Source of the DNA: Alphaproteobacteria bacterium | GTDB lineage: Bacteria; Pseudomonadota; Alphaproteobacteria; Micavibrionales; CSBR16-224 | Direction: 5' to 3' | DNA: 38,296 bases | NCBI GenBank assembly: GCA_006226225.1 | Contig: SBHI01000085.1 | Span: 1 to 38,296, forward strand | Shown here: piece after piece, positions 12,209-30,558 of the stretch | Position numbering within the stretch: position 1 is the stretch's first letter | How the letters are laid out: every line of letters starts with the position of its first letter | Translations under genes and position numbers: made by a program | The notes under the pieces: model-generated | The model's input: only the letters and a program-made list of their open reading frames with translations | Databases searched by the model: none | What the model was told of the DNA's origin: nothing

Positions 12209-12245
12209 CTTACATGCCGAGTCGGTATGTAAGTCATTCTTTTTA
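12209..12245 (+). terminator. Rho-independent terminator
   Basis: CTTACATGCCG-AGT-CGGTATGTAAG forms an 11-bp stem (one G-U pair) with a 3-nt loop, followed by TCATTCTTTTT. Confidence 0.7.
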
Positions 12246-12263
12246 TATTAATGGAGGGTTCCC

Positions 12264-12989
12264 ATGATCAAAGCAGAAGATTTTTTCAAACAGCACGAAA
12301 GCAAAGCAGGCGAATGCGTTTTCGCACCTACAGTTGAGGCACGCCATGTTCAGAAAGGCGACAGCGTCATCATTAATGTCGGTTTTAATATTCAGACCAC
12401 AGCAGAAGAGGACGGCTGGCAGGTTTTTGTCGGGCGCACCCCTAAATTTGTCAATGAAGAAGACTTTGCCGCACAATTTCTGAAACTTGACCTGCAAGGC
12501 ACGCAGGAGCTGCCGGAAGGCGCAACAGCCGACCCCGTTCTGAAAGGACAGGAAATCTATGTCCAGCCTTGGGATGATACCGAGCTGGGTGTGGTTGCCA
12601 ATGCCGAAAGCGCCGGATGGGTCGTAACCCTGCCGGAAAACGGCAAACCGCGCTTTATGTCCGATGCGGAATTTCGCGCCACATATAAAACGGATGCCGC
12701 ACCTTTGGCTGATGACGGGCAACAGGGCGTTTTTCGATATGTCCCGCAGGAAGATGGCCCCTCTCACCGTTTTGTCGTACTGACCGAAGACACAACATTT
12801 GATTTCGCCGATGGTGCCTATACGGCAGCAGCAGGATATGTTCTGTATGAGAATAAAGATGATGTCGATGGCTATACTGTTGTTCCCGGCGATCATTTCA
12901 AAGAGAATTACACCGTCACAAAAGTACCGGAAGCGCCGCAAAATGATGCAAAACGCAGCGGCCCGAAAGGCAACCGCTTCACACGCTGA
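12264..12989 (+). CDS. Acidic hypothetical protein with three internal beta-type repeats
   Basis: 241 aa. GGAGG RBS 6 nt upstream, a normal amino-acid composition, and a bidirectional terminator downstream. The repeated element is GW.V...(P)(K/R)F..(E/D)(E/A)(D/E)F...(Y/F)K at GWQVFVGRTPKFVNEEDFAAQFLK, GWVVTLPENGKPRFMSDAEFRATYK and GYTVVPGDHFKENYTVTK. Confidence 0.6.
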   Translation: MIKAEDFFKQHESKAGECVFAPTVEARHVQKGDSVIINVGFNIQTTAEEDGWQVFVGRTPKFVNEEDFAAQFLKLDLQGTQELPEGATADPVLKGQEIYVQPWDDTELGVVANAESAGWVVTLPENGKPRFMSDAEFRATYKTDAAPLADDGQQGVFRYVPQEDGPSHRFVVLTEDTTFDFADGAYTAAAGYVLYENKDDVDGYTVVPGDHFKENYTVTKVPEAPQNDAKRSGPKGNRFTR

Positions 12990-17863: not shown

Positions 17864-17884
17864 AGAATAACGAAAAAAATATTG

Positions 17885-17920
17885 CGGCGGGGTCAGGCAT
17901 GATCTCGCCGTTTCTTTTTT
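17885..17920 (+). terminator. Rho-independent terminator
   Basis: CGGCGGGGTC-AGGCAT-GATCTCGCCG forms a 10-bp stem including two G-U pairs, followed by TTTCTTTTTT. Confidence 0.65.
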
Positions 17921-17934
17921 ATAAACATCTGTGA

Positions 17935-20900
17935 TTAACCACCTTCAACCTCCTGCAACAAAGCCTCTTTTAGAATATCGCTCTGTTTCTGGTAATAATC
18001 GGCAATATCCGAAAGCTGCTGCGTGGTACTGCGCATATAGGCAATTTGTTCCTGTAGCTTGCCTGCATCGGTATTTTCCTGTCCAGCATCCTGCTGCGAT
18101 GGCTGGCTGCCATAGAGTGCCTGAAACAATCTGTTATGCACCAGACGATCAGGGAGCGAGTTCTGGGGCGCATCACTTTCCGTTTGTTCCGGTACGCTGC
18201 CGGATTCCGTCCGTTGGAAAGCGGCATTCTGAGGCTGCACCTTTTCCAGCGCGTCGTTTTGCGCGTCCGGCATTACATCCTGCCCGTTAATATTATCGCG
18301 AATTTGCTGTGACAAACCGTCTGTGCCGTAGAATGCCTGCAAAAAACCGTCACGGGAATGATCCGTTGCCTGCCGGATCAATTCGCTCTCTCCACCAAAA
18401 AGATCGGGACGTAAATTATTGTGCAAATAATCCAGCAAACCGAAATAGCGGCCATCCTGCCCGCTACCTATATTATCAAGGCCGTCTGTGCTGCCCGGCC
18501 GCGCATCTGTTGTAGAGTCGTCCGCCGGAATAAAGCCGTTAAACTCGATTTCATCAAGAACATTCATCACAAAAGCTTGATCGAAAAAGCCGCCATTGCC
18601 GTCACTGACCCTGATTGTCACATTGTGATTAGTCTGTGTTTCAAAATCGACCGTATCCATCAGACGCAGCATATTGCCCGCAATCGTGAATTTCCCGTCA
18701 GGATCACTTTGAATGCTGTAAGTAAAGCTGTCACCCGGCAAGTCGGCATCTGTTGCCGACAATGTGGCGATATCTTTGCCCACCGCCGTCAGCTCCGGCA
18801 AATCGGTGCCGGACAGCATCACCGCTGTCGGAAAATCATTGACCGGATTAATCGTCAGGGGTTTGGTATTGACGATACTGGTATAACCGCTTGTATCCGA
18901 AACGGTAAAATCGAAACTGTCCGCTGTCACTTCACTGCCGTCATGCGTGTAAAGCAAGCGTCCCGCATCAATATCGGTTTGCGTGAACATTCCGCCGACA
19001 CCGCGTGCTTCTCCCGCATCCAAGGTGCCGTTACTATTGGCATCCACGAATAATGTGCCGGTATCCGGTGCATCCGTTACGGTATAAATAATATGACCGC
19101 CGTAAACGATCTGCGTATCTGTCTGGTAAAATGTATTCGGGCTGAAATGGTTGCGGTATTCCGCCGCAACCCATGCGCCGCTGGTCGTACCTTCATAAAC
19201 GCGCAGATTATCATACAGCCCATCGTAATACACATTGTTACGACTGCCATCAAAACTTGTTGCCTCTGATCCGTCACCTATAAAGGCGTAACGCGTCCCA
19301 TCACCCAAACTAGCACCGCCATGTGAATTGGCATCGCGCGCCACTTCCGCACCATCGACATAAAGAATTTTATCCGTACCATCATAAACGGCGGCAATAT
19401 GATGCCAATTGCCATCATTCACCGTCACGCCAGTCGAGTAAAAGTCATCAATGCCAAACCCAGTCCCAGCGGTTGAAAAGCCGACCCGCCCATCACCGTG
19501 AATAAAAACATTAAAAAATTCGCTACGGTCAAAATCGATCAATGACCAGTTCTCACTTAAGCTGGTACCATTAACCGTTGTATTCACCCAGCCGCTCACA
19601 GAAATCTGCGGTAAGGAGTTATTGCCGGACAGGCCGTAATCCAGCGCGATATATTCGGAATTGTTAAATTCCGCCCCACTACCGAAGGCCCCTGCCACCT
19701 GATTACTACTGTCAAAACCGTTGCGCCCAAAGCCGTTATGCGCCCCTTGCGAGCTATCACTGATTTCAACATCAAAATCGCTTTCAAAATGCCAGACACC
19801 GCCATATTCATTGCGCCATGTTGTCGTCTGATTGGTCTCGGACGCGGCTGCATTGCCGTAATAGATATAAAAAATCGTATCCTCTGCGGCTTTCAAATCG
19901 CCACGCGTATAAAGCTGCATGCTTTGCGTGCCCGTATTGAAGGCCACCAGTTCACGGTCAAGCTTGGTCAAACCATCCGCGCCGGTGACAACAATATCCG
20001 ATCCGTCGGCTTTCACATTTCCCCAGAAATCCGCACCAAAGCCGGATTCCGTTAACAGCAGGGCAAAATCATCCAGATCGGCATCGACCAGATCATGGTC
20101 AACGGTAATTTTTTGACGGTATATCCAATTATTATCATACCATGCCGCATCATAGGAAAGCTGCGCATTGGTGATTGCCGTAATCGCCCCCTCATCCGCC
20201 GATGTTGTCGTCAGCGTATCCAGTGCCGGGCTGATCTCGATATCAGCGGTATGCGGGCCGGTGACATTTTCGGCATCACTAACAGTAAAGGAAAAACTAT
20301 CCGTACTATTCGCACCCGCACCATGTGTATAGCTGATATTGCCATCCAGAATATCCTGCTGTGTAAAACTATCACCCAGAGATAACGCTCCGCCGCTTAA
20401 AAACAGCGTACCATTGGACGGCAGTGCCGTCAGTTCGTAAACCAGTCCACCGTCAGGGTCATTAATATCCGTTGCGGTCAACACATCCGTTGTTAAAACA
20501 AGACTGCCGCCCTGCCCCAGCACAGCAGTACCCGTTGTCACCTGCGGTGGGCCTTTAATCCATTTATCAACGATATAATCATTGATGTCGCTGACTTCCT
20601 GCGCGGTCAGCGCATGATTCCATGACCAAAACTCACCGATACTCCCCTGAAAATAGGAGCCCGATCCCAGATTGGCATCGCCAACGGGAGTTTGGCTGTC
20701 ATTGGAATGTCCGATCGTCACATTACCGCTATGCGATCCCAACGTGTCCACCCGCGTCAGAACCTGCGCAGGCCCGCCATTCAGACTGACGGAAAAAGTG
20801 CGGTTATTGATATCAGCATCAGTTGCATCATGGACTGCCGTCACGTAATAGACCGTATTCGGAGCCACCGCCCCCAGATTAACCGATTTATAGCGGTCTG

Positions 20901-21405
20901 CCGCCGCCCAATAACTTTCCCCCCATGTGTAGACGTATAAATCGCCGCCGACCATAATGATATTATAACCGTTTGAGCCGCCGCCCTGTTCATACAGCAT
21001 TTGCGTGCCGCTGACATCTGCGCCGGTTTCAAACACCATTGCAAAAGACTTTTCGCTGTAGCTGCCGGTATTGATTTCCGTCGCATTGGCAATATCAAGA
21101 TAATCGGATGCGCCGTCAAAAAGGATACCGCCTCTGCCGCCAAAAGCCGTATCTTCAAAAGCCGGACGGCTGCCGCCGCTGCCCGTCGCATCATAATTAT
21201 TGCCGCTGTCATCATCCCAGACATCAATCAAGGCACCATCTGCGGGCTGATCATTCGTCAGTCCGTCACCGTCAACATCCAGCGCATCGAAATGAAAAAT
21301 CGTATTGGCAATCACAGGGAAAGAGGCATCAAGCAGCACACGCTGTTCCAGCGCCATCAGCGTCATTTTTGACGTTTTTGCCTTTTTCTCCTTCCCCAAA
21401 AACAT
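17935..21405 (-). CDS. Large extracellular multidomain protein: LEPR-XLL-like N-terminus, LamG, cadherin-like, DUF2341, LamG, cadherin-like, cadherin, and a Gln/Asp-rich tail
   Basis: 1156 aa.
- N-terminus MTLMALEQRVLLDAS, with no hydrophobic signal peptide.
- Two LamG/ConA-like blocks (aa ~60-283 and ~530-755, e.g. NWHHIAAVYDGTDKILYVDGAEV).
- DUF2341-like block NWIYRQKITVDHDLV...IFYIYYGNAAA.
- Cadherin-like blocks ending DSFSFTVSDAEN and DSFDFTVSDTSG.
- Canonical cadherin-type block VNDFPT...ATDADLPGDSFTYSI...VTIRVSDGNGG.
The exact start is uncertain: the GGAG lies only 1 nt from ATG 21405. Confidence 0.8.
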   Translation of the reverse strand: MFLGKEKKAKTSKMTLMALEQRVLLDASFPVIANTIFHFDALDVDGDGLTNDQPADGALIDVWDDDSGNNYDATGSGGSRPAFEDTAFGGRGGILFDGASDYLDIANATEINTGSYSEKSFAMVFETGADVSGTQMLYEQGGGSNGYNIIMVGGDLYVYTWGESYWAAADRYKSVNLGAVAPNTVYYVTAVHDATDADINNRTFSVSLNGGPAQVLTRVDTLGSHSGNVTIGHSNDSQTPVGDANLGSGSYFQGSIGEFWSWNHALTAQEVSDINDYIVDKWIKGPPQVTTGTAVLGQGGSLVLTTDVLTATDINDPDGGLVYELTALPSNGTLFLSGGALSLGDSFTQQDILDGNISYTHGAGANSTDSFSFTVSDAENVTGPHTADIEISPALDTLTTTSADEGAITAITNAQLSYDAAWYDNNWIYRQKITVDHDLVDADLDDFALLLTESGFGADFWGNVKADGSDIVVTGADGLTKLDRELVAFNTGTQSMQLYTRGDLKAAEDTIFYIYYGNAAASETNQTTTWRNEYGGVWHFESDFDVEISDSSQGAHNGFGRNGFDSSNQVAGAFGSGAEFNNSEYIALDYGLSGNNSLPQISVSGWVNTTVNGTSLSENWSLIDFDRSEFFNVFIHGDGRVGFSTAGTGFGIDDFYSTGVTVNDGNWHHIAAVYDGTDKILYVDGAEVARDANSHGGASLGDGTRYAFIGDGSEATSFDGSRNNVYYDGLYDNLRVYEGTTSGAWVAAEYRNHFSPNTFYQTDTQIVYGGHIIYTVTDAPDTGTLFVDANSNGTLDAGEARGVGGMFTQTDIDAGRLLYTHDGSEVTADSFDFTVSDTSGYTSIVNTKPLTINPVNDFPTAVMLSGTDLPELTAVGKDIATLSATDADLPGDSFTYSIQSDPDGKFTIAGNMLRLMDTVDFETQTNHNVTIRVSDGNGGFFDQAFVMNVLDEIEFNGFIPADDSTTDARPGSTDGLDNIGSGQDGRYFGLLDYLHNNLRPDLFGGESELIRQATDHSRDGFLQAFYGTDGLSQQIRDNINGQDVMPDAQNDALEKVQPQNAAFQRTESGSVPEQTESDAPQNSLPDRLVHNRLFQALYGSQPSQQDAGQENTDAGKLQEQIAYMRSTTQQLSDIADYYQKQSDILKEALLQEVEGG

Positions 21406-21500
21406 ACTCCTTTTTGGACGGAATACCCTTTATCTATTTTAACATGAGCAAAGTTAACGCAGGTTTAATTTACCTTTTTTTATAAATAGTTACGAAGATA

Positions 21501-23627
21501 TCAAAACGCAGCTTCTCTTTCCCAGAATGCCGCCAGACGCTGCCAGTATCTCCAGATCATGCTTTCAGCAGAGCTTTCAAGATGCACAACGCCGCGCACA
21601 ACATGCGGGTTTGGCAAAAAATCTTTCATATCCGCCTCAACGGAGAACTGCGCGTCATAAAGCCCGTAACGTGCCGTTAGGCTTGTTTTCCCGGGCACGC
21701 CATCGGTCGGGATACTGCCGCCGAAGGTGGCCGAAAGCTCCGGCCACAACAGGGCATCACTGCTGCTGTCTGCCAGCTTTTCCAACCGTACAGGAAAAGC
21801 TGAGGGAAAATCCGTATCAGGATAAAACTGCCCCATGCCGGAGAGATAGTTTTTTTCTCTTTTATTTTCATGTATATAGCCGCTAACTCTTAAGCTGTCG
21901 GGCTGCACCAATACTCCCAGACGCTGCGCAGGACTGATCCAGCGCCCCTGATGCAGCTCTGTTGCCACATCACTCACTATACCGGATATATCCGCTGTCA
22001 TTACCAGCCGTTGCTGCTGTTCGCGTAAACCGGACAATCTTTGCGCAGCAGCAGCCAGTTTTTCCGTCAATGGCTCCTGTTCGGGATGGTCGCGGGCAAG
22101 GATTTGCTGCTGATCCCGCAATCTCTGCAGTGATTGATAGTCCAGCTCTGCCAGGGTAATTTGCTGCTGTAATTGTGGTGATTCAATCACCGCCAGAATA
22201 TCCCCTTTTTCAACCTGTTGTCCTGCCGTCATATTGAACGTCGTCAGCTTTCCGGCAACCGGCGCATACAGATCCGTATAAGAGGCGCTATGCAGCACCG
22301 CAGGAATACTGACCGTATGTGTCCGCGGCAATGCCGCCACCATGAATATGCCGATTATCACACAGATGCAGATCAAAGCGCGGAGGGAACGGTATGATTT
22401 TCCTCTCCCTCGCCACCAGACAGTCATTTCCCGCCAGATCGGCAAAGCGATAAACCATGCAATTTCAACAACCATCAAAAAGATATTCAAGGGCGGAAAG
22501 AACAGTGCAAAAACCACCCAGGCAATCCCCAGAAACAGAAACAAGCGGTAGACCCAGAGCGCAAAACCGAAACATTGAAAGAAGCGCCGCTGCCGTAAAG
22601 AGAGATTCTCCGGCATATCATCCTGCCAGCCCCATAAAAACCGTCGCAAGCGCCATTTTGCCCAAAGACAGGTGCGGTCTTGCAGGTTTTCAATGCCCAG
22701 CGCATCGGACAGCAGGTAATAGCCGTCAAACTTCATCAACGGATTTAAATTCACCAGCAAGCTACCTGTCAGAGAAACCAGCGCGACAAAGAAGGCAGTA
22801 CTTTTGCCCAGCCCTGCGGGAAGAACATGCCACAACAATAAGGCGATGGCGGCAAGGCTGATTTCCGTCAGCACGCCTGCCGCAGCAATCACGACACGCT
22901 TGCGCCTGTCGGTCAGCGCCCACGCCCCCGTTGTCTCCGTATACAGAACCGGGTACAGCACAATAAATGCGACACCGATCACCGGCACCTTGACCCCGTA
23001 TTTTGTCGCCGCGTAGGCATGCCCCAATTCGTGCAATGTTTTGACAAACACCGTTGTCAGCACAATCAGTACCGCCCCTTCCCAATTCAAGATATTTTGA
23101 AAGCTGTGCAGGAATTCATCCATACGCTGAAAGGTCATCAACAACCCTGCCGCCAGTAAAAGCAACATCATCAGCAGAAAAGTCTTCGACAAGAACGGCC
23201 GCACAATGGGCAGACTTCGCTCCAGAAAATTTTGTGGTTTAAAAAGCGGAAGTGTTACAAAAAGATAACCATGCAACGCACTCTTCCAAAAGGGTTTTTC
23301 CGCAAGCTGCGCACGACGCCCATGCTGCGCCGATGCTTGCGGTGTCGCCCCTTGCACCAGTTGGTTTTGCACAAGAAAACCCGACAAGTCCCGCACCGTT
23401 TCCGTATCAATCGTCAGCGTTGTTTCCGCATTCACAGCGCGGACAAGATCATCAGCCTGGCCGCAATCCGCCAAACGGCGCAGGCATTCAAACGCCGTCC
23501 ACCCAATCTTATAAAAGCGATGCGCCAGCGGGTCGTAAATCACCCAATGCGGCGCGCCATCCGTACCTGATGCGGTTCTGTCGATTTGCAAATCTTCCCG
23601 CAACAACGGTAAATCGCGTTTTGCCAT
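21501..23627 (-). CDS. Fusion protein: PqqD/RRE-like N-domain + polytopic M50 (site-2-protease family) zinc metalloprotease + C-terminal HlyD-type barrel/coiled-coil domain
   Basis: 708 aa.
- HExxH as LHELGHAY (23019-23033).
- Second S2P motif NLNPLMKFDG (22722-22751), which fits NxxPxxxxDG.
- Multiple TM helices between aa ~145-435.
- N-terminal aa ~25-92 (HWVIYDPLAHRFYKIGWTAFECLRRL...ADDLVRAVNAE...VRDLSGFLVQNQLV) look like a PqqD-type winged helix.
- The C-terminus has a lipoyl-like hairpin (LYAPVAGKLTTFNMTAGQQVEKGDILAVIESPQL) and a Gln-rich coiled coil. Confidence 0.8.
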   Translation of the reverse strand: MAKRDLPLLREDLQIDRTASGTDGAPHWVIYDPLAHRFYKIGWTAFECLRRLADCGQADDLVRAVNAETTLTIDTETVRDLSGFLVQNQLVQGATPQASAQHGRRAQLAEKPFWKSALHGYLFVTLPLFKPQNFLERSLPIVRPFLSKTFLLMMLLLLAAGLLMTFQRMDEFLHSFQNILNWEGAVLIVLTTVFVKTLHELGHAYAATKYGVKVPVIGVAFIVLYPVLYTETTGAWALTDRRKRVVIAAAGVLTEISLAAIALLLWHVLPAGLGKSTAFFVALVSLTGSLLVNLNPLMKFDGYYLLSDALGIENLQDRTCLWAKWRLRRFLWGWQDDMPENLSLRQRRFFQCFGFALWVYRLFLFLGIAWVVFALFFPPLNIFLMVVEIAWFIALPIWREMTVWWRGRGKSYRSLRALICICVIIGIFMVAALPRTHTVSIPAVLHSASYTDLYAPVAGKLTTFNMTAGQQVEKGDILAVIESPQLQQQITLAELDYQSLQRLRDQQQILARDHPEQEPLTEKLAAAAQRLSGLREQQQRLVMTADISGIVSDVATELHQGRWISPAQRLGVLVQPDSLRVSGYIHENKREKNYLSGMGQFYPDTDFPSAFPVRLEKLADSSSDALLWPELSATFGGSIPTDGVPGKTSLTARYGLYDAQFSVEADMKDFLPNPHVVRGVVHLESSAESMIWRYWQRLAAFWEREAAF

Positions 23628-23630
23628 CTT

Positions 23631-24965
23631 CTATACTCCCAGAAAACGGCGCAGGGAAATCAACGGACGTCTGAAAAGGCTGTAAGCCAGAAAACTGCGC
23701 GCACCATAGATCTTTGCCGTCCCTGTCAGGCCGATACGCGCCGCATCATCCTCTGCAAAAGTCGCGCGTATTTTATAAGTCAGCAGGCCGTCGGCATCGA
23801 GCGATGCCTGATAACCAATGGTTCTCAGATGTGCCTGATGTTTTTTCAAAGGTGCCGTATTCAGGAAAAAGGCCGCAGGCGCGGCTTCGTCAATCCGCAA
23901 CATGGCATCAACAGGAACGCGGATCAGCAGCTCCGTATCATGTGGCGGTGCCAGCATCATAACCTTATCACCTGTCCGTACGGGGCGGCCGCGCAAGTCG
24001 TTTTTATCAGAGAAAACCGCAACACCGTCGCGCGGCGCCGTTATCACGGCTTGCGCGAGAAGTTCTCGCGCATAATGTAATTCCTGCTGCCGCAGCGCAA
24101 TCTCCGCCCGCAGCGCCGCCAGCTCCTGCTTCTTTTCCGGCGCTGTGATGGATTCGCGCTCCGCCTTTGCCAGCACAGCCTGTGCCATCGTTTGACGGTG
24201 CTCCGCTTCCGCGACCTGACTGCGCAAAGCCGTATCATCTATTTTTGCCAAGACTTCTCCCTGTTTGACCAACGTATTCGGCTCAATCAGGATATCCGCC
24301 AACATGCCGTCGAAGGGGATGGTGATTACGTAAGGGTCTTTGGCAACAACCTCCGCCGGCGCGGTTACCGACAGCTTGACAGGCCAGCACAGCGCTACCA
24401 ACACGGCCAACAGAAAGACCTTTCCCTTCCAGCTGGGCAGCTTTTTTCCACGCCTCTGTACCAACACTTGTAAACCGTAACCATAAGCATCTGCCAATTC
24501 ATCCAGCAAGACCTTATCCAAGGCTGCAAACGGCTCTTCCCGGTCTATCCACAAGGCACCTGTCACATGACCGCTACGGTCATATAATGCAACCAGTGCA
24601 GCATTGGCGGAACACCATGTTTGCCAGTTTTTTTTATCCGTTCCTTCTACATCTTTCGCATGCAAAATACGCACAGCCTCATCCGACTCCTGCTGCGGTA
24701 AATGCCGTGCAATAAAATCAGACAGCCACAACAGATACGGGCTGTTTTTTTCCATCTCCGTCAAACCGGAAACCGTTTCAATGCCATTTTCACCTGTCCA
24801 GAACAGCGCCTGCCGGTACGGAACAAGGCGGTAAGTTTCATTGACCATCATAAACGCCAGCTCTGCCGCCGTCTTTTGACTGCGGGACTGGCGTTGCAGA
24901 GAAAGAAGCAAGAGCAGCTTTTCAGCCTGTGCGTCTATTTTTTTGGTGTTTTTCTTACTCATCAC
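23631..24965 (-). CDS. HlyD-family periplasmic adaptor with an N-terminal cytosolic GAF-like domain
   Basis: 444 aa. Residues ~1-175 are soluble and GAF-like (ELAFMMVNETYRLVPYRQALFW...ALVALYDRSGHVTGALWIDREEPF). A single TM (VFLLAVLVALCWPV) follows. The adaptor core is ITIPFDGMLADILIEPNTLVKQGEVLAKIDD, a coiled coil, then VITAPRDGVAVF. The start overlaps the upstream gene by 11 nt. Confidence 0.75.
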   Translation of the reverse strand: MMSKKNTKKIDAQAEKLLLLLSLQRQSRSQKTAAELAFMMVNETYRLVPYRQALFWTGENGIETVSGLTEMEKNSPYLLWLSDFIARHLPQQESDEAVRILHAKDVEGTDKKNWQTWCSANAALVALYDRSGHVTGALWIDREEPFAALDKVLLDELADAYGYGLQVLVQRRGKKLPSWKGKVFLLAVLVALCWPVKLSVTAPAEVVAKDPYVITIPFDGMLADILIEPNTLVKQGEVLAKIDDTALRSQVAEAEHRQTMAQAVLAKAERESITAPEKKQELAALRAEIALRQQELHYARELLAQAVITAPRDGVAVFSDKNDLRGRPVRTGDKVMMLAPPHDTELLIRVPVDAMLRIDEAAPAAFFLNTAPLKKHQAHLRTIGYQASLDADGLLTYKIRATFAEDDAARIGLTGTAKIYGARSFLAYSLFRRPLISLRRFLGV

Positions 24966-26400
24966 TCGAATCCTGCGGTGCTTCTTCGGGATTTGCCGCT
25001 ACTTTCAGCCCGATAAAGCCCAACGGGATTTTCTTGCGTGCGGCTCCGACATCAAAAATCGCTTTGCCGCCCATACCCGGCAGCAATTCCTCCTGATATG
25101 ACGACAGCTCAGCAACGATTTCCGCCGTCTGGCTGACAGGATCGACTTTTCCATGGACGCGAATGACTTTCGCCGGATATGTTTTTCCGCTTTCCTCCAC
25201 ATAGACATCAAACGGCGTACCGACATTCAGCCAGCGCAGCCAGACAGACGGCACAAGAAATTGCAGCAGCAACGGTTCATTGGAAGAAATTTCCATCAAT
25301 ACACGCCCGCGTTCCGCATATTCATAGGGGCTTGCCAGCCTGTTGGTCACACGTCCGTCAAAAGGTGCCTTAATCGTGCAAAGCGCGATGCGTTTTTCAA
25401 CCTGTGCCAAACGCGCTTGCTCCTGCGCTACGCTTTCCTGTGCCGCAATATATTCGATTTCCGATAAGGTTCCCAATTTGCGCAATTGCTTTTTGGCTTT
25501 CAGTTCGGCATCCGCCAAACGCAGGGCTGCGCTTTTTTCACTGTAAAGCGCCTCTTCAAGCGCACAGTCGAAACGTGCCAGAATATCTTCGGCGGAAAAA
25601 ACATCACCGTTCTGAAAAGGAAAATCGAGAATCCTGCCGCTCATCAGGCTTGAAATCACCGCCTGTCTACGCGCAATCAGAACGGACTGCACCTCATGCG
25701 TTTCAACAGGCGCTTCGACCACGGGCGGCAATGTTTCCACAGCTGCCGTTTCGACCGGATTATCCCCAGCTGCCGGAGCAATCTGTGCGAAACTTTCAAT
25801 ATCCTCCAGCACTTTCCGCATCGGGTCAGCCTCGTCGGCGATGGGCGGCTCCTGTTTTTTCTCTTCCTTAAGAGAGGCCAGCTGCAGAGGTGTCTTTTCA
25901 CGCGATGAAACGGAGAAGAATAATTTCCGTGCCGCTGCAAATTCGACGGTTTTTTGCTCAAACGCGCGGATATCCCGCGACACTGCCGTGATCGTATGGG
26001 ATGCCGTCTGTATAAAAGGTGCATAAGCTATAACAGCCTGCTGTTTGAGTGTTGTCAAATCGGGCAGCTTCACATCTGCGAGTTTTTGGACTGTCTGTTT
26101 CCGCAGCTTTCCGGCTTTATCTGCCGTCTCCCGCCCCAACTCACCTGCAAAAGCGCCAAATGCTTGCAATTGCTGTCCCGCAAGTGCAGGGGCGCGGCGC
26201 CAATCTTCTTTATTAAATAAAAGCGGGTCGGAAAGCACCAGCATCAATCCCAGCACTGCACCAAACAGCGCGCAGGCAACAAACAACGCACGGGTTTTGC
26301 CCGCAGGTGCTTTACGCTGCGCGCGCCCTTCGGATTTCCGTCCGAACGGTACCGTTTTGTTTTTGCCTCCCGATGCATCAAGCATGGTGTCTCTTCGCAA
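24955..26400 (-). CDS. HlyD/MFP-family periplasmic adaptor subunit with a long N-proximal spacer
   Basis: 481 aa. A basic N-terminus is followed by a TM (ALFVACALFGAVLGLMLVL), a ~180-aa spacer with PVET-type short repeats, and an adaptor core (SGRILDFPFQNGDVFSAEDILARFD..coiled coil..CTIKAPFDGRVTNRL...FDVYVEESGKTYPAKVIRV). Confidence 0.75.
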   Translation of the reverse strand: MRRDTMLDASGGKNKTVPFGRKSEGRAQRKAPAGKTRALFVACALFGAVLGLMLVLSDPLLFNKEDWRRAPALAGQQLQAFGAFAGELGRETADKAGKLRKQTVQKLADVKLPDLTTLKQQAVIAYAPFIQTASHTITAVSRDIRAFEQKTVEFAAARKLFFSVSSREKTPLQLASLKEEKKQEPPIADEADPMRKVLEDIESFAQIAPAAGDNPVETAAVETLPPVVEAPVETHEVQSVLIARRQAVISSLMSGRILDFPFQNGDVFSAEDILARFDCALEEALYSEKSAALRLADAELKAKKQLRKLGTLSEIEYIAAQESVAQEQARLAQVEKRIALCTIKAPFDGRVTNRLASPYEYAERGRVLMEISSNEPLLLQFLVPSVWLRWLNVGTPFDVYVEESGKTYPAKVIRVHGKVDPVSQTAEIVAELSSYQEELLPGMGGKAIFDVGAARKKIPLGFIGLKVAANPEEAPQDSSDE

Positions 26401-26408
26401 CCTTTCCT

Positions 26409-27962
26409 TTACCGATGCGGTGTTTGCAATGCCGCATCAAGCTGTGTCAGGTGATATTGTTTATCGTCTTTTTTTTGTTTTTCTCCGTCTTGTTTTTCGG
26501 CATTCTGCCACACATCCACCCCCAGACTGTTCAGCATGCGTGCATAAGCATGCTGCGCCGCCTGATAGGCGAAAATCCTATCCCATTGCAACAAAGCGTC
26601 ATCCAGCTCTGTGTTTAAAACACTTAAATCACTGCCCAACCCCGCTTCACGCTTGCGTCTTTCGCTACGCAAAATCCTCCGGTAATTATCGGCCTGTTCA
26701 TCCATTTGTGAAAACTGGCTGCGACTTTCCTCCAATTGCTGTTTAGCGACATGAACCTGCGCAATCACCGCAACCAGCAGGGCATAGCGTTGCTTATCAG
26801 ACAGTGCCTTTTTGTTCTTGGCCTGCTCATAGCGCTGCGGCAGCGTAAATAAATCCATCAGCATTGCAGAAAGCGACACCGAGAAATTCGCCCAATCCTG
26901 ATCAGATAAAAAAGAGTTCGTATCTTTGTTTAGCCCCAGAAAAAAGCGCGCACCGGGCAGAACTTCCAGCACCGTCGTTTTGATTTCGCGCAGAGCAATG
27001 CGCTCTTTCAAAAAAGCTTCTTTCACTTCCGGACGGTTCATCAGAGCCGTGTCCTGCAGCTTCTCCAGATCCTGTTCCAGCTTGGGCAAGTCATCCGAGG
27101 TCAGCCAGTTTTTTTGCGGTAACTGTAATACAATTTTATCGTCAGGCGATAATCCGATCAGTGTTTTCAGCTCCAGCATCGCCCGGGCAACATTACGGCG
27201 TTTCTCCGCCAGTGTATTGCGCTTACGCAGCAGCTCCTCTTTTTTCTGCAAGCCGCTTTCATAGGGAATAATGCCTTTTTTGATAGCTTGCTCCAAATCC
27301 GCCAGCCGCTTATCCGCCTCTGTCAGCAGCGCGGCATGTTTGGATGACGTTTCCTGTTCTGCCGCCGCACGCCAGAAGGCGACATAAACATCCTGCGCCA
27401 GATTTTGCAGAACTTTGCGGCGGCGCTCATGCGCGATCAATACACGGTCTGATGCCGTACGCGCATGGGCAACGGTGACTGCAGCATCCAGAATATTCCA
27501 ACTTGCTTCCAATTGCGCCGTGCGGCGGTGCCTGTCCGTTGAAATCGATGGCTCCAGCGACTGCATCCCCGTCAAAGCCGACCGGCTTGATGATGCCCCC
27601 GTATTACTGCGCCCCTGATAGGATGCACCGGCTTCGATTTTCGGCAGCAGGCTTAATTTTTCGATATTATATTCACCGCTGCGGATCAGCTCTTCCATCA
27701 GCGCGACCTGCACATCCAGATTGCGCTTCACGGCCAAATCAAGCGCATCATCCAATGTTATCTGCAAAATGCCATCATTACCTTGCGCGACTGCCTCCAA
27801 ATCACCGCGCAGCCTTTCAGCATATTCTTCTTCCCCCATAGGGCTGGTTGCCGTTGAACAAGCAGCCAAAAGCAGCAATCCGGACAACAGCAAAAAGAAT
27901 TTGCTAAGATGACACAGGTTTATACGGGAACAAAGAGTCATAGAGACCAAAATTTCCAACAA
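26409..27962 (-). CDS. TolC/NodT-like outer-membrane factor lipoprotein
   Basis: 517 aa. Lipobox LLLLAAC, then two tandem OEP-type helical repeats (LDDALDLAVKRNLDVQVA..., LEKLQDTALMNRPEVKEAF...). The start may be M8 (27941). Confidence 0.8.
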   Translation of the reverse strand: MLEILVSMTLCSRINLCHLSKFFLLLSGLLLLAACSTATSPMGEEEYAERLRGDLEAVAQGNDGILQITLDDALDLAVKRNLDVQVALMEELIRSGEYNIEKLSLLPKIEAGASYQGRSNTGASSSRSALTGMQSLEPSISTDRHRRTAQLEASWNILDAAVTVAHARTASDRVLIAHERRRKVLQNLAQDVYVAFWRAAAEQETSSKHAALLTEADKRLADLEQAIKKGIIPYESGLQKKEELLRKRNTLAEKRRNVARAMLELKTLIGLSPDDKIVLQLPQKNWLTSDDLPKLEQDLEKLQDTALMNRPEVKEAFLKERIALREIKTTVLEVLPGARFFLGLNKDTNSFLSDQDWANFSVSLSAMLMDLFTLPQRYEQAKNKKALSDKQRYALLVAVIAQVHVAKQQLEESRSQFSQMDEQADNYRRILRSERRKREAGLGSDLSVLNTELDDALLQWDRIFAYQAAQHAYARMLNSLGVDVWQNAEKQDGEKQKKDDKQYHLTQLDAALQTPHR

Positions 27963-28022
27963 TTAAAGGCGGCAGAAAAGCCGGATGAAAGCATAGAAGA
28001 GTGCAGAATTATGCACTCTTCC

Positions 28023-28050
28023 ATTCTACGCTCTTCTCTATATAGGTCAA
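28023..28050 (-). promoter_or_regulatory. Candidate sigma70-type promoter for the TolC/adaptor/M50 operon (TTGACC-N16-TAGAAT)
   Basis: On the minus strand, TTGACC is at 28050-28045, followed by a 16-nt spacer and TAGAAT at 28028-28023. This lies downstream of the DUF465 terminators and 60-90 nt upstream of the TolC start. The predicted +1 falls inside the 27997-28020 palindrome. Confidence 0.45.
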
Positions 28051-28163: not shown

Positions 28164-28412
28164 TTATGCAGCTTCGGTTTTGACAATGATTTCCAGCATT
28201 TCATCCTTCAGCGCAAGGCGTGTCTTTTTCAGATTTTCCAGACGCTCGTCGCTTGCGGCTTCAATTTCTTTTTCGATGCGCAGGATTTCTTTCGTCACGT
28301 CTTCATATTCGTCGAAAAGCTTTTTAAAATGCGCATCCGTCGTTTTCAGCGTATGAATAGCTTCTTTGTGTTCCGGCAATTCATGTACCAAATCGTGATG
28401 TTCTTCCAACAT
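28164..28412 (-). CDS. DUF465 (YdcH-like) small coiled-coil protein
   Basis: 82 aa: LVHELPEHKEAIHTLKTTDAHFKKLFDEYEDVTKEILRIE...LENLKKTRLALKDEM, which matches the family signature. Confidence 0.8.
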   Translation of the reverse strand: MLEEHHDLVHELPEHKEAIHTLKTTDAHFKKLFDEYEDVTKEILRIEKEIEAASDERLENLKKTRLALKDEMLEIIVKTEAA

Positions 28413-28481: not shown

Positions 28482-29738
28482 TCATCCCGCCGTTCCAAAA
28501 CGGCGTATTGCTTCATAACCCAGTCCCAAGCCAACACTGGACAGCTTGTTCTCCTCGGAAATATCAGCTTGCGGAAATTTCGCCGCAACGGTTTTCTTCA
28601 GTAGCGGCACTTCCGTTGTGCCACCTGTCAGAATAATCAGCTCGACATCTTTTTCCCTCACCTGCGCCTGCCGCAAACAGTCATCAATATCGGAAACAAT
28701 CGCGCGCACATGTTTATCTACCGCCGCATTGAAAACCGCGCGCGCTACGGAGACGGCAAATCCCGCCTCGACAAAATCCAGCAGCGCCGTCATTTGCAAA
28801 TGATCCGTCAAGCCGATCTTGCATTCTTCAACCGCTGCCAAAAGCTGATGCCCCTTTCCCTCCTCCAGCAATTTGATATAACGCGAAAACTTCTCCGGTG
28901 CATGCGACTGCGGCAGAATATCCCGCATTTGTTTGTGCATTTTCGGCGTATATAAAAAATTGATCTTCGACCATTCGGACATATCGTGGAACGGAACCGC
29001 AGGCAGCGGCAAATTTTTCTCGCCGTAATCCGTTCCATATCCAAAATCAGGCATAAAAGCGCTGAGACTTAGATCCTTATCGAAATCATTGCCGCCAATA
29101 CGAATGCCGGAATTGCCGAGAATGTCATCCGTGCGGTCACTTTTATCCATCATGTTCTGCGCCAGACGAATGACGGTAAAATCCGATGTACCGCCCCCGA
29201 TATCGGCAACCAGTGCCAGTTGTTCGGAACGCAGTGTCCTCTCATGCGCAAAAGCCGCAGCAATCGGCTCATACTGAAAGGCGACATGTTTAAATCCGAC
29301 CGCCTTTGCGATATTCTGCAATTCATCCTGTGCGCGGCTGTCGGTTTTACTGTCATTATCGGCAAAATGCACGGGTCTGCCCATGACAACATTCGTCATT
29401 TCAACACCGCTGTGCCGTTCCGCCGCCGCTTTCATATTCCCGATAAAATCACCCAACACATCTTCAAATCTTTTTAGTTTACCGTTCACCACAGTACCAT
29501 CATTCATCAGACTGGTGCCCAGAATGCGCTTCAAACTGCGCATGAAACGCCCTTCTTCGCCCTCCATAAACAACCGCATCGCTTGTTTACCGAAACGGGC
29601 ATCCGACGCATTGACGGCATAAAAGACCGCGCTGGGAATTGTGATCTCCTCCCCCTCTAAAGGTACAAGCGTTACAGCACGTTCCCGGCAAAGAGAAAGC
29701 GTTGAATTCGAGGTTCCAAAATCAAGACCGCAATTCAT
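28482..29738 (-). CDS. Hsp70-family ATPase, YegD-like
   Basis: Actin-fold phosphate-1 motif CGLDFGTSNSTLS at the N-terminus, phosphate-2 VADIGGGTSDFTVIRL, and adenosine motif LTGGTTEVPLL. The ORF track extends 108 codons further (to 30062), but homologues start just before DxGT. ATG 29738 was verified in the sequence. Confidence 0.8.
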   Translation of the reverse strand: MNCGLDFGTSNSTLSLCRERAVTLVPLEGEEITIPSAVFYAVNASDARFGKQAMRLFMEGEEGRFMRSLKRILGTSLMNDGTVVNGKLKRFEDVLGDFIGNMKAAAERHSGVEMTNVVMGRPVHFADNDSKTDSRAQDELQNIAKAVGFKHVAFQYEPIAAAFAHERTLRSEQLALVADIGGGTSDFTVIRLAQNMMDKSDRTDDILGNSGIRIGGNDFDKDLSLSAFMPDFGYGTDYGEKNLPLPAVPFHDMSEWSKINFLYTPKMHKQMRDILPQSHAPEKFSRYIKLLEEGKGHQLLAAVEECKIGLTDHLQMTALLDFVEAGFAVSVARAVFNAAVDKHVRAIVSDIDDCLRQAQVREKDVELIILTGGTTEVPLLKKTVAAKFPQADISEENKLSSVGLGLGYEAIRRFGTAG

Positions 29739-29880
29739 GGAAATATCTGTTCTGTTTGGTGGTGACGCAAATGCCTTCCATAGATAGGAAGGATAGCGGC
29801 TTTTGTCAAGCTGCGGCGCAGGCAGATCGCATATAGGGCTGGCGCAATCTAAAATATCTCCTCTATAATCAAAAAATAGA

Positions 29881-30558
29881 ATGCCCGCAATTTTTGCCTT
29901 ATGGTTTTCAGATATGCCGGATTTCACAGTTTTCGACAAAACAACGCTGATTACAATTGCCAGCGCAGCAGCAACATTTATCGCCGTGCTGGGGATCGGA
30001 CTGGCAGTCATTAAAGACAAAACACGGATACAGAAAAAACGGCAAAAAACGCGCGGCGGCAAAGGCTGGCAAAATGCCCGTCAAAGCCTGCGCCATATGC
30101 CGTGGAAACGACTGCGCTTTTCTTCTGTCAAAAATCTCCGCAACATCCTGATTATTCTCTTCCTGCTATCAATCATCCTCGTGGGCAAAGTGCTGGAACC
30201 ATCCCCCCCGAAAAAAAGTGGCAAAAACGTAGACAGCTCGATTTTCTGCCATTCTCCCTACATTATTGACGGGGATACTTTCGACTGTGTCGGCACACGC
30301 ATCCGTCTGATGGGAATTGATGCGCCGGAAATGCCCGATCATTGCAGGCCCGGACGACGCTGTACAGAAGGAGACCCTTTTGCCGCCAAAAAATATCTGG
30401 AATCTCTGGCGACAGGATGGGTGAAATGTCGTGCAATCGAGATTGACCATTACGGCCGCACCATTGCCCGCTGCAAGGTAAAAGATGTTGACCTTTCCTG
30501 CGCCATGATCGCCTCCGGTCACGCCGTCCGGCGTTACAGCAGTATTTCCTGCCCTTAA
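29881..30558 (+). CDS. Thermonuclease (staphylococcal nuclease-like) family protein with N-terminal membrane anchor(s)
   Basis: SNase motifs are present: YIIDGDTFDC, IRLMGIDAPEM, DHYGRTIARC. There is a hydrophobic segment ILIILFLLSIILVG. The start is uncertain (29881, 29911 or 30097), and none has a clear SD. Confidence 0.65.
   Translation: MPAIFALWFSDMPDFTVFDKTTLITIASAAATFIAVLGIGLAVIKDKTRIQKKRQKTRGGKGWQNARQSLRHMPWKRLRFSSVKNLRNILIILFLLSIILVGKVLEPSPPKKSGKNVDSSIFCHSPYIIDGDTFDCVGTRIRLMGIDAPEMPDHCRPGRRCTEGDPFAAKKYLESLATGWVKCRAIEIDHYGRTIARCKVKDVDLSCAMIASGHAVRRYSSISCP

Follow-up and report, generated by a model that had tools for sequence, protein, structure and literature searches.

Classical type I secretion systems (T1SS), represented by HlyB-HlyD-TolC and, for giant adhesins, by LapBCE, are among the closest described relatives of the gene cassette analysed here, which lies within a 38,296-nt stretch of alphaproteobacterial DNA (the window). 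Both feature a TolC-family factor, HlyD-type adaptors and genes clustered with those of giant, repeat-rich substrates devoid of a Sec signal; however, the cassette has no ABC transporter in its conserved unit, encodes three different adaptors, places an S2P protease at the inner-membrane position, and its recognisable signal lies in an N-terminal leader, where T1SS substrates have an RTX block and signal at the C-terminus. Peptidase-containing ABC transporters (PCATs), which serve double-glycine-leader bacteriocins, likewise recognise an N-terminal leader that is cut by a protease domain within an inner-membrane export complex, coupled to an adaptor and TolC in Gram-negative versions, but they carry a C39 cysteine peptidase on an ABC pump and move small peptides, whereas the cassette features an RRE and a zinc S2P on an adaptor, no ATPase in cis, and a predicted protein cargo of 1,000 to >10,000 aa. 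The combination of an N-terminal RRE and an S2P core is known from RiPP intramembrane metalloproteases of the MpaP and YydH/LiaK types, whose described role is leader removal, MpaP having been described as an RRE-dependent intramembrane peptidase. In contrast to the cassette fusion, whose daptide_HExxH score falls below the equivalog cut-off, these Gram-positive enzymes have neither a C-terminal HlyD adaptor nor TolC/adaptor partners, process peptides some 30-60 aa long and are clustered with modifying enzymes.

Further resemblances are partial. Accessory Sec (SecA2/SecY2), which exports giant serine-rich adhesins, is paralleled solely in a sister clade of the cassette, where a dedicated SecA paralog appears linked to giant adhesin export; the cassette systems, however, are Gram-negative with TolC and adaptors, lack SecY2 and Asp proteins, and the paralog is truncated in the sister clade and absent from the clade of the window. 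Paired-adaptor efflux pumps (e.g., TriABC-OpmH) and MacAB-TolC also provide several non-identical adaptors per TolC-family channel, and the cassette adaptor fold (lipoyl, beta-barrel, alpha-hairpin) is nearest to MacA, AcrA and EmrA, but the cassette includes no RND, ABC or MFS transporter, its linked cargo is a protein, and of its adaptors one is fused to a protease while another has a GAF-like domain in the cytoplasm. With LapG/LapD-LapA, the cassette would share the cutting of a giant adhesin close to its N-terminus at a TolC-like channel, and possibly a cytoplasmic sensor input; it contains, however, neither the periplasmic cysteine protease LapG nor the c-di-GMP receptor LapD, and its own protease is intramembrane and fused to an adaptor.

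Judged from sequence comparisons, the four genes and the gene downstream of them (Table 1) most plausibly form one unit, namely an envelope system dedicated to the export of a giant LEPR-XLL surface protein and to the processing of its N-terminus (probability roughly 0.6).

Table 1. Features of the cassette and its flanks in the window (nucleotide positions; residues refer to the respective protein).
Feature	Position	Strand	Basis or remark
TolC-family outer-membrane factor, probable lipoprotein (lipobox LLLLAAC)	26409-27962	-	Pfam OEP 4.4e-31
Adaptor A, periplasmic adaptor (PAP/MFP)	24955-26400	-	HlyD_3, RND_mfp
Adaptor B, GAF-like domain + HlyD-type adaptor	23631-24965	-	HlyD_3
RRE/M50/HlyD fusion, 708 aa	21501-23627	-	profile, motif and fold matches
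RRE (PqqD-like winged-helix) domain, cytoplasmic, residues 1-95	23343-23627	-	AF2 + Foldseek
S2P/M50 polytopic membrane core, residues about 132-432	22332-23234	-	
HExxH	23019-23033	-	
NxNPxxxFDG	22722-22751	-	
Periplasmic adaptor part, residues 435-708, alpha-hairpin 484-539	21504-22325	-	
LEPR-XLL giant, 1156 aa, predicted substrate	17935-21405	-	Pfam, NF012209
N-terminal leader MFLGKEKKAKTSKMTLM-ALEQRVLLDAS	21322-21405	-	LEPR-XLL motif residues 18-28
DUF465-like ORF, 82 aa	28164-28412		between Hsp70-like gene and TolC gene
Sigma-70-like promoter candidate TTGACC-16-TAGAAT	28023-28050	-	upstream of TolC gene; 10/12 consensus
GC-rich strong hairpin	17884-17911	.	directly past the giant gene's stop codon; 12-bp stem, 7 GC pairs, T-run on + strand

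The packing of the four minus-strand genes described in the initial annotation (8-nt gap, 11-nt overlap, 3-nt gap) was exact at all coordinates, and a 95-nt spacer separates the fusion gene from the giant gene on the same strand. The assertion that the operon is pump-less was likewise borne out, as the profile HMM search returned no ABC_tran, ACR_tran or MFS match for any of the four proteins. The proposed regulatory boundaries fared less well. Promoter-like sites in the region numbered 15, compared with 11+/-3 in shuffles, i.e., not above chance, and the operon's supposed own promoter, despite its 10/12 match, is therefore statistically not meaningful and a candidate only; the supposed insulating terminators upstream are weak hairpins only, equally without statistical meaning. 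At the other end, the sequence of the strong hairpin suggests that it is likely a bidirectional terminator closing the unit.

The TolC-like protein matches Pfam OEP in two stretches, its hydrophobic N-terminal segment ends in LAAC, and its gene is the first of the cassette, conserved in 52 of 80 genome loci. Adaptor A (HlyD_3 3.4e-15; TIGR01730 RND_mfp, 107 bits vs. a cut-off of 94.9) possesses one N-terminal TM helix (residues 35-63) and, with 481 aa, is longer than most orthologs (about 250-300 aa); the position of its gene is conserved across the genome loci. Adaptor B (HlyD_3 5.1e-10) consists of a cytoplasmic GAF-like domain of ~180 aa, a TM helix (181-204) and a periplasmic HlyD-type adaptor. 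Its N-domain is conserved throughout the family, and the GAF-like designation was upheld at the family level (Pfam GAF in 6 of 23 homologs, best 2.1e-5; sister-clade ortholog 4e-10) but not for the window copy itself, which has no Pfam GAF match.

The fusion protein represents a large family, with at least 3298 cluster representatives at E<=1e-30. As proposed, it contains an M50 module (Peptidase_M50, 28.9 bits vs. a cut-off of 27.2), in addition to matches to Biotin_lipoyl_2/HlyD_3. The catalytic motifs are HExxH (H199/E200/H203) and NxNPxxxFDG (293-302), of which HExxH and the pattern NxxPxxxxDG are invariant in 65 homologs, and MjS2P (3b4r) matched at the HExxH region in a profile search against the PDB. 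The AF2 model of the protein is confident (pLDDT 83.7) and folds the S2P core as helix, beta-hairpin, helix, helix. The RRE assignment, for which the region in the window fusion gave no Pfam match while the sister-clade ortholog exceeds the Pfam PqqD cut-off, was substantiated by its fold: the modelled N-domain is beta3-alpha3 (beta 14-18, 27-32, 37-41; alpha 43-52, 58-68, 75-87; pLDDT about 90), and its top six PDB matches were all lasso-peptide B1 RRE proteins with bound leader peptides (Foldseek prob 0.99-1.0, TM 0.62-0.69, with modest E-values of 1.6e-3), the seventh match having a prob of 0.16. The best of them, TbiB1 (5v1u/5v1v) and 6jx3, were both solved with the leader peptide bound. 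For the adaptor part, HlyD (8dck, 6.9e-16) was the best PDB profile match, followed by MacA and EmrA, and Foldseek returned MacA, AcrA, MexA and EmrA, each with prob 1.0. The RRE and S2P modules together match NCBIfam daptide_HExxH (2.5e-43, residues 27-373; 148.6 vs. an equivalog cut-off of 300) and the YydH/LiaK model (2.7e-10). As modelled, the module for recognition joins a genuine RRE fold to an S2P core, and it shares homology with MpaP, the leader peptidase of daptides.

The 1156-aa protein carries the LamG and cadherin domains attributed to it (Cadherin_3 twice, Laminin_G_3 and Cadherin in Pfam), whereas DUF2341 was not detected in the Pfam search. Neither a hydrophobic segment nor a GGxGxD motif was found in it, in agreement with the initial annotation, and the giants of the family in general lack hydrophobic segments of the Sec type and are essentially free of RTX repeats. 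The protein had also been called leaderless, a description that has to be abandoned, since its N-terminal ALEQRVLLDA motif, extended to ALEQRVLLDAS, passes NCBIfam NF012209 LEPR-XLL (19.8 bits vs. a cut-off of 17) and defines a LEPR-XLL leader. The motif is unique in the six frames of the window, and the leader can be aligned to 41 others taken from different loci; in loci L005, L066 and L081, an ortholog of the giant comes immediately after the fusion gene.

The linkage between cassette and giants was surveyed in both directions. The forward survey comprised 80 loci from species-representative genomes of at least six phyla or classes. The order TolC-adaptor-adaptor-fusion was conserved, and the sole recurrent neighbours were adaptors/fusion (77 loci), TolC (52) and giant proteins (51), with neither a recurrent small-peptide gene nor a recurrent pump gene. 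Giant ORFs with a LEPR-type start (ALEPRxMFDGAA) occurred in 38 of the 80 loci, a further 19 had an adjoining giant whose N-terminus lay outside the locus edge, and no LEPR-type motif was found in the 425,038 other residues of these loci. In the reverse survey, 80 metagenome loci were chosen solely by the back-translated leader; cassette genes were present in 34 of them (31 of 59 among loci >=4 kb). About half had no cassette nearby, in some cases despite >8 kb of upstream flank, and some LEPR-XLL proteins are therefore encoded apart from any cassette. PGAP, an independent annotation, gives neighbouring genes the name 'LEPR-XLL domain-containing protein'. The A. brasilense giant begins MALEPRFMFDAAG, and the surrounding +/-16 kb contain no pump. 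E. coli IncF/IncHI1B plasmids carry the same five genes between IS5 and IS1 (24 of 5426 complete genomes). Moreover, the leader subtype follows the fusion clade, being LEPRxMFDGAA in the window clade and the classic LEPRxLLSAD in the sister clade. Where the initial annotation had left the substrate as either the adjacent protein or a peptide, the adjacent protein is preferred because of the two-way linkage across phyla, the linkage on E. coli plasmids, and the lack of a recurrent small-peptide or pump gene in the loci.

The mechanistic steps of RRE-leader binding, cleavage and secretion are all inferred from homology and gene linkage. The cytoplasmic RRE of the fusion would bind the leader with which the 1156-aa protein starts (basic residues followed by ALEQRVLLDAS), as RREs bind RiPP leaders, and bring it to the fused S2P active site (H199/E200/H203, D301), where it would be removed at the inner membrane. 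The adaptor part of the fusion, adaptor A and adaptor B, probably arranged in a mixed ring, would dock onto the TolC-like lipoprotein and thus form a duct across the envelope, by which the giant may leave the cell in unfolded form; the GAF-like domain of adaptor B may gate export. The S2P domain would fill the inner-membrane place normally taken by a pump of the ABC, RND or MFS type.

An energiser encoded elsewhere had been postulated, and a concrete candidate class is now available, namely a SecA-type motor. In sister-clade operons on 12 replicons, a truncated SecA paralog of about 640-670 aa immediately follows the fusion gene; it aligns to SecA over NBD1-PPXD-NBD2 only (SecA_DEAD 1e-91 to 1e-103, PPXD retained). 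Neither SecA-like ORFs nor a recurrent ATPase were found in the window and about 160 loci. With no motor in cis, the window clade would therefore borrow one, housekeeping SecA being the leading candidate, or use another energy source. To our knowledge, there is no precedent for moving a 1000-10,000-aa protein over the inner membrane without a motor, and we know of no S2P core that conducts proteins; both points count against the export model.

Foremost among the alternatives, though unlikely, is a classical T1SS whose ABC transporter is encoded elsewhere, so that the adaptors and TolC would serve an ABC pump and the S2P fusion would merely be an accessory leader peptidase. The adaptor part is indeed most similar to T1SS HlyD and MacA, T1SS genes may be divided among loci, and many window-clade giants have a short conserved C-terminal tail in common, which could be the actual signal for export, as it is in T1SS, and as such counts against a leader-guided model. 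However, just 5 of the 80 loci contain an ABC-like ATPase, its position is not conserved, and no family of ATPases was recurrent; known T1SS keep the ABC and MFP genes together, with TolC as the dispensable neighbour, which is reversed here. Furthermore, the IS-bounded E. coli module contains no ABC gene, relatives carry the SecA paralog instead of an ABC protein, and the GGxGxD repeat is absent altogether from 22 of 26 complete giants.

Next in rank, and improbable as well, is a retention-and-release device comparable to LapG/LapD-LapA, in which the giant would surface by another route with its leader tethered to the RRE/S2P at the base of the TolC-adaptor duct, until GAF-gated intramembrane proteolysis frees it. 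Regulated release is a classical S2P role, a module at the N-terminus of LapA-type adhesins sits in the TolC-like channel and anchors them, and both the cytoplasmic GAF-like sensor domain and the hydrophobic C-terminal anchors of some giants would suit such a device. It needs, however, another translocation route for proteins without Sec or RTX signals, LapG-type and LapD-type genes are not linked in the 80 loci, and the SecA paralog of the relatives keeps the preprotein-binding domain, which argues that the system itself translocates a polypeptide.

Far less probable is a device for envelope quality control or efflux that plays no part in exporting the giant and would, for example, clear mislocalised or aborted giant fragments, or another toxic molecule, via TolC. 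Breakdown of remnant signal peptides is a known task of S2P family members, RseP among them, and the missing motor would be easier to accept in a degradative role, but the RRE-protease fusion, the retention of three adaptors and TolC, the co-movement of module and giant gene on plasmids, and the SecA-type translocation motor of the relatives would be left unexplained. Least probable of all is RiPP- or bacteriocin-type maturation and export of a small unannotated peptide, the giant's adjacency being incidental: RiPP leader peptidases are homologs of the RRE-S2P module, and RiPP pathways are where RRE domains are otherwise found, but the strong two-way linkage is specific to LEPR-motif giant ORFs, the 80 loci contain no RiPP-modifying enzyme or recurrent small ORF, the NCBIfam score lies far under the equivalog cut-off, and leader subtype and fusion clade co-vary.

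The dedicated export-and-processing system is the preferred reading. No literature on this cassette or export system was found, and the machine is probably so far undescribed. Since the cassette adjoins LEPR-XLL giants in many phyla, it is probably their dedicated machine.

All five genes considered here, i.e., the four minus-strand genes of the cassette and the downstream gene for a giant protein, were recovered in an ORF map at the same positions as in the initial annotation (see table). The cassette genes are separated by an 8-nt gap, an 11-nt overlap, and a 3-nt gap, and the giant gene follows after a 95-nt spacer; the cassette–giant unit is closed by a strong hairpin. Regulatory elements that had been proposed upstream were less convincing: the promoter (28050-28023) matched the consensus at 10 of 12 positions, yet such sites were no commoner than in shuffled sequence, and the terminators proved weak.

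Coordinates of the analyzed features in the window and in the comparison loci (L-numbers)
Feature	Location	Strand	Size or remark
TolC-like protein	26409-27962	-	517 aa
Adaptor A	24955-26400	-	481 aa
Adaptor B	23631-24965	-	444 aa
Fusion protein	21501-23627	-	708 aa
Giant protein	17935-21405	-	1156 aa
C-terminal tail region of giant	17935-18060
Hairpin	17884-17911
DUF465-like ORF	28164-28412	-	82 aa
Hsp70-like YegD-type protein	28482-30062	-	NF008673, 1.4e-79
OmpA-domain protein	30567-34715	-	1382 aa, Sec-type signal
SdrD_B/DUF11 protein	34715-38209	-	1164 aa
Truncated SecA paralog	L206 11090-13048		directly after fusion
Truncated SecA paralog	L207 10881-12866		directly after fusion
Truncated SecA paralog	L208 9964-11880		directly after fusion
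Truncated SecA paralog	L209 11023-13047		directly after fusion
DUF3467 protein	L207 6605-6886
DUF3467 protein	L208 5486-5806
DUF3467 protein	L210 5657-5953
DUF4347 case	L203 1527-11726
DUF4347 case	L205 2791-3591
In-frame TAG in giant gene	L205 2751-2800		NZ_AP018397.1, ~195750-195790

Profile searches assigned the TolC-like protein to the Pfam family OEP (4.4e-31), its score against the TIGR01844 subfamily (42.7) remaining under the cut-off of 225, and a lipobox (LLLLAAC) was recognized in the hydropathy scan. Adaptors A and B both matched HlyD_3/RND_mfp. According to hydropathy, adaptor A possesses a single TM helix, while adaptor B starts with approximately 180 cytoplasmic residues followed by one TM helix. 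Adaptor A, as encoded in the window and in a close relative (476 aa), exceeds most of its orthologs (~250-300 aa) by about 200 residues, and no Pfam match was obtained for the extra periplasmic region (residues ~64-230). The cytoplasmic N-domain of adaptor B is kept family-wide. Its description as GAF-like appears reasonable at the family level, with GAF matches for 6 of 23 homologs (best 2.1e-5) and for the sister-clade ortholog (4e-10), but does not extend to the window copy, for which neither Pfam nor PDB sequence searches returned a significant match. The reported lack of a pump was corroborated by profile HMMs, as none of the four cassette proteins contains an ABC, RND, or MFS domain, ACR_tran included.

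Upstream of the cassette, the genes for the Hsp70-like, DUF465-like, OmpA-domain, and SdrD-like proteins form a block whose synteny extends to the closest relative, L081 (83% identity). The Hsp70-like, OmpA-domain, and SdrD-like genes were rejected as system components because they are kept in this closest relative only and not in other lineages. The four-gene block looks like a lineage-specific surface-protein island, within which the Hsp70-like ATPase is a candidate helper for the system.

The fusion protein features the two motifs defining site-2 proteases, HExxH and NxxPxxxxDG, of which the second supplies the third zinc ligand (Asp). In an alignment of 65 homologs, H199-E200-x-x-H203 was invariant, as were N293, P296, F300, D301, and G302 of the second motif (N293-L-N-P296-L-M-K-F300-D301-G302). 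The match to Peptidase_M50 (PF02163) was a marginal pass (28.9 bits; gathering score 27.2), and the protease MjS2P (3b4r) matched in the HExxH region only (6.5e-5). According to hydropathy, about 138 N-terminal residues form a cytoplasmic domain, followed by approximately seven TM helices, with the C-terminal part in the periplasm; the protein also matched Biotin_lipoyl_2/HlyD_3. The AlphaFold2 model built from the 65-sequence alignment was confident (pLDDT 83.7). Its N-domain shows a beta3-alpha3 order and leads into a helical membrane core, in which a beta-hairpin follows the HExxH helix (residues 182-209); in the periplasmic adaptor, residues 484-539 form an alpha-hairpin. A fold search with the whole model retrieved adaptor structures only (MacA, AcrA, MexA, and EmrA), and the HlyD protein of a type I secretion system (T1SS; 8dck) ranked first in the PDB sequence profile search (6.9e-16).

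For the N-domain of the window copy, no Pfam match was found even at E ≤ 10, and nothing significant was detected among PDB sequences. This domain (beta14-18/27-32/37-41 and alpha43-52/58-68/75-87; pLDDT ~90) was modelled alone for a separate Foldseek search against the PDB. The top six matches were lasso-peptide B1 RRE proteins with leader peptides (including TbiB1, 5v1u/5v1v, and 6jx3), with probabilities of 0.99-1.0 and target TM-scores of 0.62-0.69, the probability of the seventh match being 0.16. These matches confirm the earlier assignment as an RRE-like/M50/HlyD fusion, together with the invariant protease motifs and the HlyD-type adaptor part. Among relatives, a sister-clade ortholog passed the PqqD profile PF05402 (24.1 bits, cut-off 23.4), and several relatives carry the PGAP label 'PqqD family'. 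Residues 27-373 also matched NCBIfam NF041824, the daptide intramembrane metalloprotease (2.5e-43), although the score of 148.6 bits did not reach the equivalog cut-off of 300 bits; on profile evidence, the fusion protein is a homolog of the daptide leader peptidase and not its equivalog. In the paper on the daptide enzyme, an RRE is described as fused N-terminally to a site-2 protease of the intramembrane type that cleaves off the leader peptide (bioRxiv 10.1101/2023.03.08.531785).

In the giant protein of the window, Cadherin_3, Laminin_G_3, and Cadherin domains were identified, whereas a previously proposed DUF2341 was not matched. As had been noted before, it lacks a Sec-type signal and RTX repeats, the hydropathy scan yielding zero hydrophobic segments and the GGxGxD count being 0. 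When the first 72 residues were scanned alone, residues 18-35 matched NF012209 (LEPR-XLL) with 19.8 bits (cut-off 17); this match went unreported when the whole protein was scanned at E ≤ 0.01. The motif is unique across all six frames of the window, and the gene may start at M1, M14, or M17. Judged by the profile, the giant bears a defined leader of the LEPR-XLL type.

The fusion family comprises a window clade, including the window copy, and a sister clade. Giants linked to the window clade share a short basic/polar stretch, the consensus llALEPRimFDGAAaATaAEv, and an acidic low-complexity linker, whereas leaders of the sister clade show the classic form (IEPRILLSADP, MEPRVLLSADP, and LEPRVLLNADV). 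Thus, the leader subtype tracks the fusion clade, the window leader (ALEQRVLLDAS) being intermediate between both forms. Many window-clade giants carry DUF4347 (e.g., VVFVDxxVxDYQxLL) behind leader and linker, as seen in L203, L205, and the N-terminal regions of L027 and L080. In the window giant, LamG/cadherin modules come directly and DUF4347 is missing, so this domain is not needed for the linkage to the cassette. At the other end, many window-clade giants share the tail P-x-[LF]-[TS]-x-Q-[LV], followed after about 15 residues by LLxAL; the tail region of the window giant reads TTQQLSDIADYYQKQSDILKEAL. Nitrospira-type giants and that of L080 have instead a common hydrophobic C-terminal segment, GLSVGYVxWLLRSGVLLxALLSTVPxW. 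These C-termini, seen in the window, L203, L204, L107, L117, L135, L162, and other loci, could act as an additional signal for export or anchor the protein in the membrane.

To assess the distribution of the system, the fusion protein was searched in sequence collections, resulting in at least 964 full-length matches in a word-indexed search and 3298 cluster representatives at E ≤ 1e-30 in an exhaustive search, the top 150 being nearly all 700-720 aa long. A scan of one genome per species confirmed at least 590 loci, of which the best 80 were examined. They span Alpha-, Beta-, Gamma-, and Zetaproteobacteria, Nitrospirota, Scalindua, Bdellovibrionota, and Desulfobulbaceae, and cultured carriers include Pseudomonas, Stutzerimonas, Halomonas, Phytobacter, Azospirillum, Niveispirillum, and Methylobacterium. 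Wherever the flank suffices, the order TolC–adaptor A–adaptor B–fusion is kept in these 80 loci. Clustering of their flanking ORFs yielded three recurrent families only, namely adaptors/fusion (77/80 loci), TolC (52/80), and giant proteins with a median length of 1942 aa (51/80).

A strict LEPR-type pattern occurred within the first 150 residues of the cassette-adjacent giant ORF in 35 of the 80 loci and nowhere else in them (0 in 425,038 residues). Three further loci have slightly divergent leaders, and in another 19 a giant ORF is adjacent, with its N-terminus past the 10-kb locus edge. In the reverse direction, back-translated A-L-E-P-R-x-x-F-D-G-A was scanned against metagenome contigs and returned 80 loci; cassette genes lay beside the giant ORF in 34 of them, and in 31 of the 59 that were at least 4 kb long. 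The linkage between cassette and LEPR-XLL giants is specific and two-way. Some LEPR genes with long flanks in this metagenome scan have no cassette nearby, so a single cassette may handle more than one substrate, or the genes of some substrates may lie far from it. Several Pseudomonas/Stutzerimonas loci (L059, L064, L070, and L072; ~12210-12785) contain a conserved ORF of about 170-250 aa between the fusion and giant genes, which the window lacks.

Public records provided further examples. In Azospirillum brasilense, a 3399-aa 'DUF4347 domain-containing protein' beginning with MALEPRFMFDAAG is followed by TolC, two adaptors, and the fusion, and no annotated transporter lies within 16 kb. On E. 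coli IncF/IncHI1B plasmids, the five genes of cassette and giant are flanked by IS5-family and IS1 elements, the giant leader containing ...RFALESRQLFDGAALAE. At ≥99% identity, the fusion gene occurred in 24 of 5426 complete genomes of E. coli, where it was mostly plasmid-borne. ABC transporter annotations were absent within ±15 kb in both the A. brasilense and the E. coli records. In one plasmid locus (L205), the giant gene is interrupted by an in-frame TAG, leaving a 266-aa fragment with leader and DUF4347 and, separately, an Ig-like protein of 4179 aa. The interruption could reflect a nonsense mutation or pseudogene in that strain, or a sequencing issue.

The sister clade was represented by plasmid matches of about 25% identity from Rhodobacterales, Rhizobiales, and Thalassospira. 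Its operon comprises the giant gene, an optional DUF3467 gene, a GAF-adaptor, the RRE-M50-HlyD fusion, a 638-674-aa protein, a short adaptor, and an optional TolC. The giant genes measure 12-39 kb, and in three loci PGAP labels the product 'LEPR-XLL domain-containing protein'. The 638-674-aa protein matched SecA_DEAD (1e-91 to 1e-103), SecA_PP_bind, and P-loop_SecA, which identifies it by its domains as a SecA paralog, one of a distinct truncated family; public labels are inconsistent ('SecA', 'translocase', 'DEAD/DEAH box helicase', and 'prepilin peptidase'). Because the alignment covers residues 16-509 of E. coli SecA and 29-603 of B. subtilis SecA, we take it to be an NBD1-PPXD-NBD2 motor without most of the scaffold/wing region, including the SecY-engaging two-helix finger. 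By tblastn, the paralog was found within about 2 kb of the sister-clade fusion gene on 12 replicons, and one Thalassospira locus lacks it. SecA-like ORFs were absent from the window, from approximately 160 loci of the window clade, and from the loci of Azospirillum and E. coli. In several sister operons, a DUF3467 protein of 93-106 aa is encoded between giant and GAF-adaptor. This strongly conserved protein is a possible substrate chaperone; among PDB sequences, no chaperone match that could be interpreted was obtained.

Considering these results, we propose, with a probability of roughly 60%, that the cassette is an export-and-processing system for LEPR-XLL giants. The RRE of the fusion protein would bind the LEPR-XLL leader, for which the tracking of leader subtype with fusion clade is an indirect hint, and the site-2 protease would remove this leader. 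The three adaptors and the TolC-like protein would form the exit duct, and translocation might be powered by a SecA-type or other motor.

The system shares with T1SS the HlyD-family membrane fusion proteins, three in this case, and a TolC-family outer-membrane protein. However, T1SS has a dedicated ABC transporter, and none was found with the cassette: a linked one was rejected by regex and cluster analysis of the 80 loci, of which five showed ABC-like ATPase signatures, at unrelated positions, and among which no ATPase family was recurrent. T1SS substrates, moreover, carry a C-terminal signal, usually after RTX repeats, whereas 22 of 26 complete LEPR giants, among them that of the window, lack GGxGxD, and sister-clade giants have scattered internal copies with essentially none within the last 400 residues. 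The short C-terminal tails shared by many giants are a caveat here. We consider a T1SS served by an ABC pump in trans unlikely, and the mobile five-gene module without a pump argues against any dedicated ABC partner. That the cassette acts as a retention-and-release device is likewise improbable.

A quality control or efflux device is highly improbable. Tripartite efflux pumps have an energised inner-membrane transporter, and no RND, MFS, or ABC protein was a recurrent neighbor of the cassette among the 80 loci. Least probable of all is a RiPP peptide exporter, in spite of the homology to the daptide enzyme, as daptide/YydH peptidases sit with short precursors and modifying enzymes, neither of which was recurrent in the 80 loci, while the recurrent partner of the cassette is a giant protein. 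Accessory SecA2-type export has a SecA paralog in the locus, a feature present in the sister clade and lacking in the window.

Since an energised transporter is absent, the cassette falls outside both T1SS and tripartite pumps as these are defined. All parts belong to known families, and the overall logic of the export-and-processing model resembles PCAT/T1SS export, so the cassette is classed among the TolC-adaptor export systems, as a variant. More tentatively, with the odds somewhat against it, it may constitute a new Gram-negative secretion class distinct from T1SS, in which an adaptor-fused RRE/S2P platform recognises and removes the LEPR-XLL leader and giants pass through a hetero-adaptor/TolC duct with no ABC, RND, or MFS pump, driven by a SecA-type motor (the truncated paralog in the sister clade; housekeeping SecA or another force in the window clade). 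Full-text literature searches returned no description of this system; 'M50' in reviews on tripartite pumps turned out to be residue M507 or a DOI string and not the peptidase.

If the model holds, the cassette would deserve to be recognised as a secretion system in its own right. To our knowledge, TolC-adaptor conduits have been thought always to require an ABC, RND, or MFS engine, a rule that the pump-less cassette challenges, and its relatives point to an unexpected pairing in which TolC ducts would work with SecA-type motors. RRE domains would be extended from small RiPP precursors to giant proteins, this being the first RRE known to act on a full-size protein. LEPR-XLL is a curated, functionally orphan N-terminal signature on some of the largest bacterial proteins (genes of up to 39 kb here); it would gain a function as a sorting signal with a widespread machine, comprising thousands of representatives in many phyla and on E. 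coli plasmids. Precedents for such signal–machine pairing are PEP-CTERM/exosortase and LPXTG/sortase. The finding is also relevant for annotation, current labels being 'HlyD family efflux transporter', 'biotin/lipoyl-binding protein', and even 'prepilin peptidase'. Carriers are culturable and genetically tractable, which opens the model to direct test, and its practical relevance would lie in biofilm formation and host or root colonisation by Azospirillum, rhizobia, Pseudomonas, and nitrifiers.
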